NCBI GenBank assembly: GCA_965655095.1 | Contig: OZ296650.1 | Coordinates: forward strand, 26,040,001-26,104,000 | Origin: Haplodiscus bocki | Taxonomy: Eukaryota | Direction of reading: 5' to 3' | DNA: 64,000 nucleotides | Shown: in pieces, positions 1 through 5,189 of the stretch | How positions within the stretch are numbered: position 1 is the first letter of the stretch | How the letters are laid out: every line of letters begins with the position of its first letter | Translations under genes and position numbers: made by a program | Notes under the pieces: generated by a model | Database searches by the model: none | The model's input: the letters and a program-made list of their open reading frames with translations, nothing else | What the model was told of the DNA's origin: nothing

Positions 1-275
1 CCGATATCATCGATTTTAGCCTTTTTTGTTTGTTTTTTGGTGTTATTAGGGCTAAATCTGTATGGCGAAAGCATATTTATATCGTTTCTATATCTTTTTA
101 TAGTAGAAGAGGACATGTTTAATTGAGATGATATCTCTGATTGTGTCATTTTAGGATTTTGACATTTAATATTCATGAAATCATTCATAAGTTTCAATTT
201 ATAATATTTAGTTAACATATTAGGATCCATTGCAGAATTTTTATTTATTTCGTTTAAAGAAGGAGTATTATTCAT
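1..275 (-). CDS. Helix-turn-helix DNA-binding protein (3' end runs off window)
   Basis: Hand translation from ATG 275: MNNTPSLNEINKNSAMDPNMLTKYYKLKLMNDFMNIKCQNPKMTQSEISSQLNMSSSTIKRYRNDINMLSPYRFSPNNTKKQTKKAKIDDI... The segment NPKMTQSEISSQLNMSSSTIKRY fits an HTH pattern (TQxEIAxxLxxSxSTIxRY). Not in the supplied ORF track because it has no stop in the window. Confidence 0.75.
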   Translation of the reverse strand, partial: MNNTPSLNEINKNSAMDPNMLTKYYKLKLMNDFMNIKCQNPKMTQSEISSQLNMSSSTIKRYRNDINMLSPYRFSPNNTKKQTKKAKIDDI

Positions 276-418
276 TTAATATTGTATAAAACAAAACATA
301 AAAATAAAAACATAATTATGACAATTAAAAATAAAAATATTTTAAAGTATTTGTTTTGTTTCATTGTGTTATCAACAAAGTTGACATATTCTTCAAGTAA
401 TTTTGTTTTAATGTTCAT
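272..418 (-). CDS. Small (48 aa) single-pass membrane protein
   Basis: MNIKTKLLEEYVNFVDNTMKQNKYFKIFLFLIVIIMFLFLCFVLYNIK*, with one hydrophobic span. Its TGA overlaps the ATG of the HTH gene (ATGA). Confidence 0.5.
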   Translation of the reverse strand: MNIKTKLLEEYVNFVDNTMKQNKYFKIFLFLIVIIMFLFLCFVLYNIK

Positions 419-423
419 TTTAA

Positions 424-930
424 ATGAATAATAATCCAGAAACATATTTGCTATCCCATAACAGATTTATTGATTATCTTGTTTTGATATTTGTAGACAA
501 AAAGAAAGCTCAGATTTATACCTTTCCTAATAAAGTAGATGAATATGATATAATTCAATACATTATTGATTTTCCTTATCAACGTTTATTTAGACCTAAT
601 AAACATCTTGAACGCTATCGTATCGGAACTCCTAAACACGAAAATTTTTTGTTCAAAATAGGCGATAAAAAATATCTACACGTCGGCGAATCTATTTTCA
701 CGTTTACAACAAATAGTAACATTAATAAATACGGTTTTAAGTATGGTTATAACGATATTAAATACCCTTTTGCATATGACAAAACAAATATTTATTATAT
801 GTTAGAGAAAAAATATGAACCTATTAATCAATATAAAAAATCTATATACAAAGACGAATATTCTTACCTGTACAGAAATAATAAAACAAACGGTAAAAAA
901 TTACAAAATTATAAACTTATTCATGAATAA
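424..930 (+). CDS. 168-aa hypothetical protein, Tyr/Lys/Ile-rich, resembling giant-virus hypothetical proteins
   Basis: Intact ORF in very AT-rich DNA with a TAAATG start. The block FLFKIGDKKYLHVGESIFTF...YGYNDIKYPFAYDKTNIYYMLE resembles, from memory, an NCLDV hypothetical family (LLxIxxxKYxxIGxxIFxF...GNNDVPYPYAxxxxNxYLLxE); not verified. Confidence 0.7.
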   Translation: MNNNPETYLLSHNRFIDYLVLIFVDKKKAQIYTFPNKVDEYDIIQYIIDFPYQRLFRPNKHLERYRIGTPKHENFLFKIGDKKYLHVGESIFTFTTNSNINKYGFKYGYNDIKYPFAYDKTNIYYMLEKKYEPINQYKKSIYKDEYSYLYRNNKTNGKKLQNYKLIHE

Positions 931-945
931 TTTTCAACATATTAA

Positions 946-1104
946 ATGACTATAACTAAAAATAAAATTAGAAAACGAAAAATTAATCTAATAATCCCAA
1001 AAAAATGTAATCATAATCTGATTATTCCAAATTATAGTAATCTTGGTTATAATCTTATAATACTAAAAAATAATGATTGTAAAATTATTATCCCAAATGT
1101 ATAA
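946..1104 (+). CDS. 52-aa basic peptide with four (N/K)(L/I)II(P/L) repeats
   Basis: MTITKNKIRKRKINLIIPKKCNHNLIIPNYSNLGYNLIILKNNDCKIIIPNV*. TAAATG start 15 bp after the previous stop. Confidence 0.45.
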   Translation: MTITKNKIRKRKINLIIPKKCNHNLIIPNYSNLGYNLIILKNNDCKIIIPNV

Positions 1105-1107
1105 AAA

Positions 1108-1568
1108 TTGTCAATTTTCTCAAAGAATATAATAGATAGAGAGCTGAATTTTTCAACGTATACTTAACTTTTAACGGGCTATCCAATGACATATCATTTG
1201 TACTTGTGGCTCAAAAATTTATAATCTCTACATGTTTAAGCTATGTCGACATATACTGTTTTTGTCAATTTTCTCTAAGAATATAATAGATACAGAGCTG
1301 AAACTTTCAGCGTGTATTTAACTTTTAACGAGCTATCGAATGGTGTATCATTTGTATATGTAGCTTAAAATTTTGTAATCTCTACATGTTTAAGGATGTC
1401 GACATATGCTGTTTTTGTCAATTTTCTCGAAGATTATAATAGATACGAGGTTGAATTTTTCAGGGTTTACTAAACTTTTAACGAGCTTTCTAACGATGTA
1501 TCATTTATATTTGTAGCTTAAAATTTTATAATCTCTACATGTTTAAGGTATGTCGACAGAGTTTTTGT
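1108..1568. repeat. Three tandem ~154-bp repeats (subterminal repeats of the virus-like element)
   Basis: Units start ttgtcaattttctc at 1108, 1262 and 1415. Shared blocks: ataatagata..gagctgaa, aactttta(a)cg, tcattt, aatctctacatgtttaag..atgtcgaca. Confidence 0.9.
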
Positions 1569-2019
1569 ATTTCTCAGAAATCGTGTTTTCGTAATAAGAT
1601 AAAAATATCCACTGGTCAACTTTCATGTCTAGCTTTTCAACCGTCTTCGAGTGAGCATTCCTGGTGGATATCCCCGTCGATCTATTCTGCTTTTTCAAGC
1701 ATTCAGACATGGACAGTTCCTCCTATAGCTTCACGGTAATGTACGACAAACGACTGGGGATACGTATTAAGCAGCGAACCCCAAACACTGCGGCATTGCC
1801 TTAACTTCATCGATGTCATTCTACAAATACCAATCTGCTATAGGAGACGAAACAGAAAAAGAAATACTAACATAAAAATACACGTGCAAGTTCATTTTAC
1901 CATTGCTGTATAATTTTGCGTTCACATAGATGTGGAAATATATATACACTCTTTCGTACAATTATATGGTGGAGAAAAACAGGTATGTTAAAAAATTTTT
2001 ATAATTATTTTTGGTACGG

Positions 2020-2144
2020 ATATAGGTGCACATAATACCAGTCAAATAATACCAGTAAAAATTATGGTAGTCAAAGTCGGTATCGGGTTTGGCTACCTTG
2101 ATTTTTTACTGGTATTATTTGACTGGTATTATCCGCACCTATAT
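2020..2144. mobile_element. Palindromic (hairpin) MITE, ~125 bp, TA-flanked
   Basis: atataggtgcacataataccagtcaaataataccagtaaaaa ... tttttactggtattatttgactggtattatccgcacctatat is a near-perfect inverted repeat. Confidence 0.8.
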
Positions 2145-3104
2145 AATTATTTCTAAATTTGAGAAAAATAATTTTCAACATACTCAAGTCGATCGAAGGA
2201 CCAGGTGCTAGTTTACACTCTGATGAAGAAAAATGCTTTGTAAGATTGTAATCTTAAAATGGAAACTAACCAAATTTTCGTGAAACGGCAACAGGGGTCG
2301 GATCAAAATTTCTAATAACGTCTAAATTCGGAACGACCATCAATTAGCCGCCAAGCAATTACACTCAAACTGACTTTAACCAAAATCAAACACTATAAAT
2401 TCAACAAACCTCATAATGCCTACAACTTTCAATTTTGTCACAAAGTGTACTATTCAACCTAACCAAAGTCTTTTCTTGGGTAGATTTCCAATCCGCTCAA
2501 AAAATCTTTATGAAGTAACTAACCTTTGAAGGAAAATCAAGTAGGCGGGAACTCCAAAACTCGAATTACTGAGTTACTTCGAATTGGTTTGAAAACAAAA
2601 AGGAACAAAATTCTCCTGAAGACAAAAATAGGTAAAGTGACCATCAATCTTTCGGTTTCCAATAATTGGGGTGACAGGTATCCACCAGATCCGACGTAAC
2701 AGGGGACCCTTGACAGAGAAAAATGGCATCGGTGCCATGATGAAAATGGGAACTACCCGGAAGTGTTTCTAAAAGGGTTATTTTTGGTAATTTAATGAAA
2801 AGTTGAGATATTTTTCTCGACGAAAAATGAAATTTTTGTTTGAGACATGTAAAACAAGTTCGATAACGGTTCTAAAAATACAACTGGCGGGGTATAAATA
2901 TCGGCGGTTTTTCGGACTAAAATCCGTAAACCGGCTTGCACTCAGACAACGACGACGACGAAGACAACAACGGACGTGCTTTTGAGAACTTTGGGGAGTC
3001 TTCTGCTATTCTTCGACGCTCTTCGTATTCCTAGTTACTCTTTTAAAAAATTTTGAAAGAAAAACTCAATTAAAACTCTTCGTTATTGTATCTCTCTTTC
3101 TTTC

Positions 3105-3145: not shown

Positions 3146-5189
3146 CTCTGGCTCTATTGGGGCAACAGAGCTATCCGTCGACAACTCGGTGCTGCGACTA
3201 TATGTAAGTTTGTAACTTTAATTCACTGAGAGTTTTCCCAAGTGCGCTTTCTGACTGATTTTTCGTGAACAGCAAAGATTCTTTGGTTCTATTCTTGCTA
3301 AACTTGTCTGCATTGGACTGAAGTTGGAATTCGAAAGTTGAGCTGGATTTCCAACTGGAGCAAAAACCTTTTTTTGCGATTAAGCAACCAATTGCTTGCT
3401 TAAAAGAAACAAAAACTGAGAGCTTTGCTGTGCGGTCTCAGTAAAAACTGAGAGAGTTAGAGTGGTTGAAAGTCTCTATTGCGTTTTTCACTAAAAACTG
3501 AGATTGTTTTTTTCAGAATACACGGTTTTTTTGAACTCGCGATTAAGTCTACCTTTCATTAGCTAAAAGTTAGATGTAAGTTAAGAAAACATAGTTGGTT
3601 GCAAGTATCCGCCCAACGTAAGTTCGACTTTGAGTTATATTTAATTACCAAGATATTGTTGTTTTTCTTTATGCCCTAGTTAGTCGAACGGCAGGACGGG
3701 ATTTTATTTTTTGCGTCACCGAAGTCCCCCTTACTATGGATCCTTCTTTTGGCCCACTGGCAATTGGGTCGTAGCAAAAGAGCTACTGTAGTCATAACTT
3801 TATTAAACCCGTTTGCCAGGGGTTTATAATTACTGAATTTATGGAGGTGTCTAAGAGTTAGAAGCATAATTTGCTCTACACCGGACGGAGATAAATTAAA
3901 AAAAAGTCCGCGTAGGTCTCGGTCCACCAGAGGCTGACTGAAAGCCATGAGCCCAGTGTCGTGAGGTACCAACGTAGCATCTCCCTGCCGCGAACCAAGC
4001 AGAACTTCCAAGGTCTGCAGTACCGGCTAATGCATGGTTGTGAACTGGACTTCTCGTTCTTATCCCTAAAGGTGCAGAGTGATTTCAGTTCTACAATTTT
4101 TGGATAGTTTTTCGCAACAGTCAATAGAGCTAAGTATTAAGTGATTATAACTGTTTTTTTTCAGCTAAGGACCAATTAGTGCCGCTTTCTGGTCTTGCCG
4201 TAGAGTAACTCCGAGAATTGCTATACCTCGGAGTGCTCTCTTAATTAACCACTTTCCACCAATGGGATTTGTGAGTATCCCAAATTTTTCGCGTCTGTAA
4301 CCCTGCACCTTAAGACTATACCCCTCCTTAGCTGATAGGTGCCAATTTTACATAAAGACAGTTTTACTAGAATAGGGCAAGCTTGGGGCAAAGTCAGAGC
4401 AATTATGAGTTCGATTGAATTTTTTGGTAATGAGAATGAATATGGCAGAAAAGGAGCAACAGTCAAAGACAATCCTTCAAGCTTTTTTTTACAAGAAACC
4501 TTTAAATCATCAGTTTCATCTCATCTAAACGACAATATTAGATAATTATTGCAAGCATTTTGCACTCTAAGGATAAAAATAATTAACTGAAGGATTGTGA
4601 GCAAAGTATTAATACTTTGAACTTTGGAAAATCTGCTTCGAATGATCGAAAGGTGACAGAAATAGAAAAAAAAAGAAATTTTGTTTTGCACGAATTGATC
4701 CTCGAAAGCTGATCAGGGGGGTGTTTTCCACAAAATCCGAACTCTATGCAAAAATCAATCAAGCTCAACACTAAAGTGCTAATTGTTCACACGTTGAAAA
4801 TTGCGGGAGCAAAGTCAAAATCCTACCATTCAAGCGCCGTTTACAAACAACAAATTGATCATTCAAAATTATGAAAAAGGAATGTTCAATTGTGTTGCCA
4901 AAACAAAACAAAACAACAAGTCCAGAAGAAATTTTCATGCGCTTTTTTGGCAATTTCGAAAATTTGAAAATATGGACTTTTTCTGGTTTCCCGAAAGCTT
5001 GGCCAACAGCCTCGCGCCATAACTTCTTTGCTGTCTCGAACTATAGTTAACAAGAAAATGAAACGACAAAACTCAAATTTTGTGTTGTATTGAAATTTGT
5101 TTCCATAATTGAACAAAATTGGTAGCCTAAAAATAAATAATGAAAATGACGAAACAGAAAACACAGAACATTATATATTTAAATTAGGC

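Follow-up and report, generated by a model that had tools for sequence, protein, structure and literature searches.

Poxvirus-type start signals in the genes of a high-copy Maverick/Polinton family from an animal genome

The window analysed here is a stretch of 64,000 nucleotides from Haplodiscus bocki (assembly GCA_965655095.1, contig OZ296650.1, forward strand, positions 26,040,001 to 26,104,000). Its first 2151 bases are the right end of one copy of a Maverick/Polinton element that is present in high copy number in this animal genome. It is conspicuous that nearly all genes of the element family begin at the sequence TAA/ATG (the slash marks the start codon), i.e. they carry a signal that resembles the late promoter of poxviruses. 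An earlier note, made from the letters of the window alone, had pointed to this sequence and had suggested an integrated Polinton-like or other linear DNA element adapted to cytoplasmic transcription. The integrated Polinton-type element is borne out by the hallmark genes, the termini and the target-site duplications described below.

The element and its copies

The copy in the window has a total length of 17,711 bp, and its limits are AATAATTAT on the left (G000:C3:26024441) and ATAATTATT on the right (window position 2151). Window positions 1129-2173 match L012:4425-5464 in inverted orientation at 96.4% identity. The earlier note had seen a sharp boundary at 1598. This is not the end of the element, as the terminal repeat reaches 2151 and is followed by the duplication TCTAAA, and in four public runs, all from one study, the sequencing depth does not drop from repeat level until after 2144. 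A chimeric join, which the same note had named as a possible refutation, is disfavoured by the identical target duplications at both ends. The right junction is also crossed by two contigs without differences, with only 27 letters inside the element, which is below the bridging threshold.

When the element was followed to the left, as the earlier note had proposed, a protein-primed family B DNA polymerase (pPolB), an rve integrase, an A32-type ATPase and a double jelly-roll capsid protein were found; mapping of the ends and copies gave inverted repeats of about 1 kb, a 6-bp duplication and a copy number that is at least 100. The latter is a lower bound taken from the capsid matches in the genome, of which 100 out of 100 scored are 90-96% identical, except for the self-match, and have mostly open frames. 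The inverted repeats are present in 9 of 10 other copies, with spans of 16.9-18.4 kb where these are measurable, and the identity of the left and right repeats inside single copies ranges from 84 to 99.6%. Among the 7 copies in which both ends are resolved, 6 have the 6-bp duplication (TCTAAA, AAGGCT, TTCATT, AGTGTG, CAGGGG and AATGTA) and one lacks it; this count omits 4 further copies in which one end lies outside the fetched stretch or is unresolved. Maverick termini are expected to read 5'-AG...CT-3'. Among the 7 resolved copies the terminus is AGTAGT in 3 and AATAAT in 4, the window's copy included. The GC content of the element is 23-27% vs 36% in the host. In terms of termini, duplication, polymerase, integrase, ATPase and capsid the element is a Maverick/Polinton; we do not claim that it is a virophage.

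The gene set

In the window's copy the integrase gene lies to the left of the window (PF00665, E 1.7e-11). The major capsid protein matches PF21738, and its structure model (pLDDT 77.6) matches the capsids of iridovirus, Sputnik, PBCV-1 and Mavirus with E values of 1e-14 to 1e-12. The fold matches to virophages are no better than those to iridovirus, PBCV-1 or adomavirus, and the capsid is 11-13% identical to that of Mavirus, which is one of many equally distant matches. The ATPase (PF04665) is split in two ORFs (open reading frames) in the window's copy (E 1.3e-5) and scores 3.4e-8 in another copy.

At least four polymerase types (A, A2, B and C) are exchanged within one structural chassis, i.e. 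between copies whose capsids are 90-96% identical (L012, L015-L034, L104-L119). Types A2, B and C match PF03175 (E 5e-16, 5e-15 and 1e-20, respectively); type A, the one in the window's copy, has no direct Pfam match, is 43% identical to A2 and is divided there into three ORFs. A programmed break in the polymerase was considered and rejected, since the break points vary among copies and some copies read through; many copies carry broken genes. Types B and C are about 42% identical to each other and both have an endonuclease VII domain. Overall the four types are 37-45% alike or cannot be aligned.

Other genes are less readily named. An ORF of 137 aa has GTHW, FDSYG and Q..C motifs, which would fit an adenain-type cysteine protease; it has no match in Pfam, PHROG or PDB. 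Two paralogues of 364 and 368 aa, 39% identical to each other, are candidates for the single jelly-roll minor capsid protein, and no family match was found for them. A gene for an RNA polymerase was not found in the 11 copies examined, and no unassigned ORF exceeds 368 aa.

The search for relatives of the capsid with DNA context in IMG/VR and metagenome scans was blank except for one contig of 1.2 kb. In this distant relative (L131, a JGI contig of 1195 bp) the order of the genes for capsid, protease-like protein and ATPase is not the same. The same animal genome holds a second, conventional Maverick family of about 41% GC (L120+L108, L123+L106, L126+L107, L129+L109).

The start motif

Starts were counted in ORFs whose N-terminus aligns to the reference gene. 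Of 187 gene starts, taken from 11 copies, 175 are TAA/ATG. The other 12 belong to the 48-aa gene (4), orf99 (2, TAAA/ATG), the type-B polymerase (4) and to departures in single copies (2); in the four cases of the 48-aa gene the ORF caller chose an upstream ATG, and the true start is TAAA/ATG. By comparison, TAA stands before 168 of 4741 other ATGs (3.5%), and Markov-resampled DNA treated with the identical ORF rule has TAA/ATG at 27 of 535 starts (5%). The unassigned ORFs (6/192) and the ORFs from host DNA within the window (2/138) also rarely have it. The enrichment of TAAATG over the AT-rich background, which the earlier note had put forward as a test, is present throughout the element and is specific to this family.

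Since the copies are related, the independent unit is the gene family. The family-weighted profile, in which the 48-aa gene and the type-B polymerase are omitted, covers 19 of 19 families and has T at -3 with a frequency of 0.98, A at -2 with 0.99 and A at -1 with 1.00. The bases from -8 to -4 vary among copies, with up to 7 different strings per family, while TAA stays invariant. A TATA box was rejected as the source of the pattern, as the positions from -7 to -4 are variable and TAA alone is fixed.

This contrast also bears on the suggestion that the signals are relics, i.e. that the ancestor was a helper-dependent cytoplasmic element, that the burst in this genome was due to nuclear transposition, and that the motifs persist because the copies are young. 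The identity of the terminal repeats within copies, the many copies with broken genes and the failure to find a helper are all in agreement with it. Nevertheless, TAA/ATG is invariant next to upstream bases that have changed, and four polymerase types as divergent as those described above each hold the signals, which points to selection throughout the diversification of the family. We regard relic signals as distinctly unlikely.

Another suggestion is that TAA is a stop codon, and that the pattern reflects translational stop-start coupling on polycistronic transcripts of a genome that is AT-rich and tightly packed. In 10 of the 175 cases the TAA is indeed the stop codon of the upstream ORF. 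The other 165 are not upstream stops, and the motif heads both genes of divergent pairs, where there is nothing upstream, so this explanation is hardly credible.

The host, which by its histones and intron-bearing genes looks like an animal, shows a different pattern. At 34 HSP70, actin and tubulin loci the ATG of the longest ORF is never preceded by TAA, and among host genes with recognisable N-termini (11 plus 3 histones) TAA/ATG occurs in 0 of 14, while a purine is at -3 in 12 of 14. The conventional second Maverick family is similar to the host in this respect (TAA/ATG in 0/21, a purine at -3 in 16/21). The motif is therefore neither a trait of the host nor a general trait of Mavericks in this genome. 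We note that the TAAA/ATG variant does not discriminate, being present in 2 of the 14 host genes.

The late promoter of vaccinia is described as a TAAAT that overlaps the start codon, in most cases with G as the next base, and a T is conserved at the 10th nucleotide before it (PMC11980589). A peak of T is also seen in the element at -13, i.e. at the 10th nucleotide upstream of TAAAT, and it was noticed alongside this published description. Its family-weighted frequency is 0.75 (20 families) vs 0.39 +/- 0.06 at random upstream positions, a value that was not reached in 100,000 permutations; only 62 of 168 TAAATG sequences away from starts have this T. The neighbouring positions -15, -14 and -12 have T at 0.50-0.60, and C and G are nearly absent from -15 to -12 (0.05 vs 0.21). 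The T at -13 is weak in 3 of the 20 families. In the type-B polymerase TATAAAT is retained 12-13 nt before a different ATG (4/4 copies), so that the motif is separable from the start codon, as expected of a DNA initiator and unlike a translation context.

Early-type signals in the replication genes

A second type of signal is found on the polymerase side of the element. The sequence [AT]TGAA lies 18-62 nt upstream of the start in all copies of the type A polymerase (4/4), the type B polymerase (4/4), orf99 (9/9), the zinc-finger gene (5/5) and orf125 (2/2). The capsid, ATPase, protease and integrase genes, both of the approximately 365-aa paralogues, orf177, orf282, the helix-turn-helix (HTH) gene and ORF168 have it in just 0-2 of 4-12 copies. 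This distribution is descriptive and carries no formal test.

The sequence TTTTTNT is described as the early transcription terminator of poxviruses (PMC3061580). In the replication genes it is seen once, with one representative per gene type, while 15.9 +/- 3.2 occurrences are expected from shuffles of synonymous codons; even with worst-case representatives the numbers are 5 vs 16.7. All other genes of the window's copy are at expectation (15 vs 14.8). In the frames of the type-B polymerase TTTTTVT occurs 5 times vs 32.5 expected, and its look-alikes are as frequent as expected (TVTTTTT 26/26, TTTTVTT 28/29). The polymerase of the conventional Maverick family has 8 TTTTTNT vs 8.9 expected. Depletion of AATAAA was uninformative as a test of nuclear expression, with 34 seen vs 32.9 expected in the element and 9 vs 7.4 in host genes. 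The T at -13 and the avoidance of TTTTTNT in the replication genes are poxvirus-like signals that go beyond what the earlier note had predicted.

These signals have to be weighed against the possibility that the element needs no helper and is expressed in the nucleus. In this case host RNA polymerase II, perhaps steered by the HTH protein of the element, would act on a compact AT-rich core promoter, the likeness to poxviruses would be convergent, and TAA before ATG would stop N-terminal extensions from upstream AUGs. The nuclear integration with 6-bp duplications, the high copy number, the mostly open capsid frames, the presence of an HTH gene and the blank searches for helper traces (see below) fit this picture. 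On the other hand, T at -3 runs counter to the host context, to which the conventional Maverick of this genome conforms, and neither the T at -13 nor a loss of TTTTTNT confined to the replication genes is predicted. A nuclear, helper-free element is in our view unlikely.

The polymerase intein

Sister copies of the element have an intein of about 346 aa with a LAGLIDADG nuclease in motif C (YMD/S...HN/TD) of the type-B polymerase (L031:2842-4345, at G000:C8:56.47 Mb); there are 148 intein matches in genome G000. The closest inteins outside the Polintons are allelic: they occupy the YGD/TDS site of delta-like polymerases of 1400-1900 aa from metagenomes and are 38-43% identical over the full length. 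For one near relative (P0377) a gene with 100% identity is present on a contig of a giant-virus metagenome-assembled genome (MAG), and we infer that the other delta-like polymerases with related inteins are viral too. In the intein tree the Polinton clade (support 99) is nested among the inteins of the delta-like polymerases (98); this was a quick, midpoint-rooted tree of 51 of the 69 extracted inteins, which does not show the direction of transfer.

The intein shows that the gene pool of the element was in contact with giant viruses in the past; it does not show the identity of a helper. This intein is also present in type-B-like Polinton polymerases from other sources (P0379, P0373), which means that it was acquired before the present family arose. 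Intein invasions were previously suggested as the origin of nuclease insertions in polinton polymerases (PMC11161782), and GIY-YIG and HNH nucleases are described in algal elements (PMC12220804).

In 5 of the 10 intein loci examined (L059:1474-2562, L060, L062, L063 and L064) the intein is an ORF of its own, 362-365 aa long with a few flanking codons of the polymerase. In L059 and L064 the polymerase whose end precedes it is of a different type (A2). The stand-alone intein may act as a free-standing homing endonuclease and assist in the displacement of one polymerase module by another.

A proposed helper-virus model

We consider it probable that the element is transcribed in the cytoplasm with the help of a pox-like large DNA virus, i.e. 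that it has a Mavirus-like lifestyle in an animal. Since the copies examined turned up no gene for an RNA polymerase, such signals need an enzyme from outside. The earlier note had left two possibilities for cytoplasmic transcription, an enzyme of the element itself or that of a nucleocytoplasmic large DNA virus (NCLDV). The first finds no support in the gene set. The second is suggested by the signals, and three marker searches for such a virus were blank.

According to the proposed model, the element is likely to be silent while it is integrated; upon infection of the animal, the RNA polymerase of the pox-like helper would probably transcribe it in the cytoplasm. TAAAT would be the transcription start, and slippage on the run of A residues would yield a 5' poly(A) leader that makes an otherwise leaderless mRNA translatable; slippage of this kind, giving 5' poly(A), is described for the vaccinia and yeast pGKL polymerases (PMC6211774). 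The polymerase-side genes would also be read early from the TGAA element, and because of this early reading an internal early terminator would be selected against. The capsid, ATPase, protease and integrase would be made late, and the integrase would be packaged for the next integration. Polymerase modules and the giant-virus-type intein may have been picked up or swapped during co-infections. A comparable arrangement is known from Mavirus, in which the late promoter of CroV precedes all genes and the integrated form is latent until CroV infection (PMC6723459), and a similar inference from motifs alone is presented in bioRxiv 10.64898/2026.07.28.741278.

A more far-reaching picture can be drawn, which we put forward tentatively and regard as slightly less likely than not. 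In this picture the genome carries hundreds of integrated provirophage copies tuned to an undiscovered poxvirus-like virus, with a two-stage, early and late program written in the signals of the helper. In a metazoan germline the family would then serve as a heritable antiviral element in the manner of Mavirus, or act as a hyperparasite, and it would have taken up a giant-virus-type intein that is now in part a free-standing homing endonuclease.

Several observations weigh against the helper-virus model. Searches of the genome for VLTF3, the NCLDV capsid and the poxvirus early transcription factor, made without a positive control, were blank, and hundreds of nuclear integrations have to be reconciled with expression in the cytoplasm. 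In the distant relative L131 neither of the two visible starts is TAA/ATG. The early and late classes are blurred, since [AT]TGAA has intermediate counts in four further families (orf112 8/10, orf65 8/11, orf52 5/11, orf155 5/9). As for TTTTTNT, its depletion is not significant in two divergent frames of the type-B polymerase (4/7.1 and 4/7.9), one of the approximately 365-aa paralogues is partly depleted without having TGAA (6/18.2), and a placement at 3' ends is not clear, as only 5 of 18 early-type genes have the sequence within 120 nt after the stop codon. Moreover, three giant-virus MAG polymerases are also depleted (1/10.9) and chloroviruses were suggested to use TTTTTNT (PMC7019647), so its avoidance points to large-DNA-virus transcription in general rather than to a pox-specific signal. 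The polymerase type of the window's own copy lacks the intein. Finally, giant viruses with a related intein have TAA/ATG in just 4 of 29 ORFs; as they do not share the habit, the donor of the intein and the donor of the promoter were not the same virus.

The outside enzyme might also come from a linear plasmid in the cytoplasm, similar to pGKL2 of yeast, or from an unsampled autonomous member of the family, that encodes a poxvirus-related RNA polymerase. The pGKL elements are described as having a poxvirus-like early element, which lies 20-40 nt ahead of the start, together with a TAAAN initiator at which slippage produces a 5' poly(A) (PMC6211774); this is the same two-part layout as in the replication genes here. 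Against this, the 11 copies yielded no RNA polymerase ORF (no direct search for a plasmid was made), and the strict TAAATG with its T at the 10th upstream base fits the vaccinia late description better than TAAAN. We regard a helper of this kind as very unlikely and prefer a pox-like virus.

Comparison with known systems

The element resembles the animal Mavericks/Polintons of the adintovirus type (PMC8502044, PMC6723459) in its size class (15-20 kb), terminal inverted repeats, 6-bp duplication and in the presence of pPolB, rve integrase, A32-type ATPase, double jelly-roll capsid and a protease-like ORF. It differs from these in having poxvirus-type rather than Kozak-type starts, in its low GC content compared to the host, in its four interchangeable polymerase types, LAGLIDADG intein and two approximately 365-aa paralogues, and in that many copies end with AATAAT and not AGTAGT.

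With Mavirus, as described in PMC6723459, it shares the combination of pPolB and rve integrase, nuclear integration and a single helper-type late motif before essentially all genes. The host is an animal here, the motif is of the poxvirus type and not of the CroV type, and the replication genes carry an additional early-type layer. We note that the promoter match is to published late signals of poxviruses, not to those of an identified helper.

To our knowledge, the yeast pGKL elements do not integrate. According to PMC6211774, pGKL1/2 have a pPolB, terminal repeats, AT-rich packed genes and an early-type upstream element with a TAAAN initiator, as the element does; unlike it, pGKL2 encodes an RNA polymerase of its own, and the pGKL elements have no capsid or integrase. 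The poxvirus signals described in PMC11980589 and PMC3061580 are matched by TAAATG over the start codon, the T at the 10th base upstream and the exclusion of TTTTTNT from the early-type genes, and perhaps by an A-rich element interrupted by TG. Unlike poxviruses, the element has no poxvirus transcription gene and TTTTTNT is not regularly placed after the early-type genes.

Polinton-like viruses are known from the occlusion bodies of entomopoxviruses (Barth et al. 2024, PMC11296320). They are similar to the present element in being animal Polinton-like elements tied to poxviruses, with mosaic replication modules and turnover of the end modules; two of the pPolB elements in that report have no detectable integrase. 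The main text of that report contains no promoter analysis, the words "promoter", "motif" and "TAAAT" being absent, and "promoter", "helper" and "intein" are absent from the adintovirus paper (PMC8502044). No report of such signals in Mavericks/Polintons was found in the open-access literature, a scope in which subscription papers and Repbase notes could be missed.

Animal Mavericks may be transposons of the nucleus, viruses in their own right or parasites of larger viruses. One genome with two Maverick families, one with host-type starts and the other with poxvirus-type starts and terminator avoidance, makes this question directly testable. The model leads one to expect a pox-like virus in this host lineage, in which the present searches detected none. 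TAA/ATG, the T at -13 and the depletion of TTTTTNT could also serve as a quick sequence screen that sorts the Mavericks of any genome by their site of transcription, and the intein points to gene traffic between the polymerases of giant viruses and Polintons.

Features at the window end

The coordinates of the features are collected in Table 1. The four ORFs are exactly as the earlier note had described them, with TAA/ATG at 275(-), 424(+) and 946(+) and TAAA/ATG at 418(-), and the tandem repeats it had mentioned correspond to the 153-bp array.

Table 1. Features of the element at the left edge of the window (positions are those of the window)
Feature	Position	Strand	Remarks
Maverick/Polinton right end	1..2151		Rest of the 17,711-bp copy (G000:C3:26024441-26042151) lies left of the window
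Helix-turn-helix gene, 146 aa, 5' part	3..275	-	TAA/ATG start; continues left of the window; PF13412 at 23-24 bits, cut-off 21.9
48-aa gene	272..418	-	TAAA/ATG here, TAA/ATG in several other copies; hydrophobic C-terminal stretch
TAAATG initiator-like site	273..278	-	
Back-to-back starts of the divergent pair	416..426		CATTTTAAATG
ORF168, 168 aa	424..930	+	TAA/ATG start; conserved within the element family
TAAATG initiator-like site	943..948	+	
52-aa gene	946..1104	+	TAA/ATG start; adjoins the terminal repeat
153-bp tandem array	1108..1558		2.9 copies; mostly within the terminal inverted repeat
Right terminal inverted repeat	1129..2151		96.4% identical to the left repeat (1049 alignment columns); ends ...ATAATTATT
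Imperfect palindrome, ~125 bp	2020..2144		Tip of the terminal repeat; at both ends of the window's copy (other end L012:4448-4573)
6-bp target-site duplication TCTAAA	2152..2157	+	Repeated beside the left end

The DNA from 1 to 1105 has a GC content of 22.6% and contains just 4 TAAATG sequences on both strands, 3 of which are at ORF starts. At the back-to-back starts other copies have the palindrome CATTTATATAAATG, i.e. TAAATG on both strands. In all four ORFs the differences from 9 other copies are biased to the third codon position (0.085/0.055/0.181 by codon position in ORF168), which means that the ORFs behave as real genes. The hydrophobic stretch of the 48-aa gene is likely to be a membrane anchor. 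ORF168 has no match in Pfam, PHROG, atlas, phage or IMG/VR searches, its homologues come from the same element family only, and its structure model is unusable (pLDDT 37); a presumed likeness to a hypothetical protein of giant viruses could not be confirmed.

The terminal palindrome of about 125 bp was found in no other fetched locus. A conserved TAAACTTTTTTAGTC stretch follows orf177 (L011:~4870-4890 and 5/10 other copies) and resembles part of "Repeat 2" in the supplement of PMC11296320, a likeness that may be due to chance in AT-rich DNA.

About 4 kb to the left of the element there is a gag/pol region that we take to be LTR-retrotransposon-like (L012:1-714(-), L013:2327-8962(-)). Elsewhere in the genome, at G000:C4:15.58-16.31 Mb and on C37, histone gene units of 4.6 kb are repeated in tandem in a large array.

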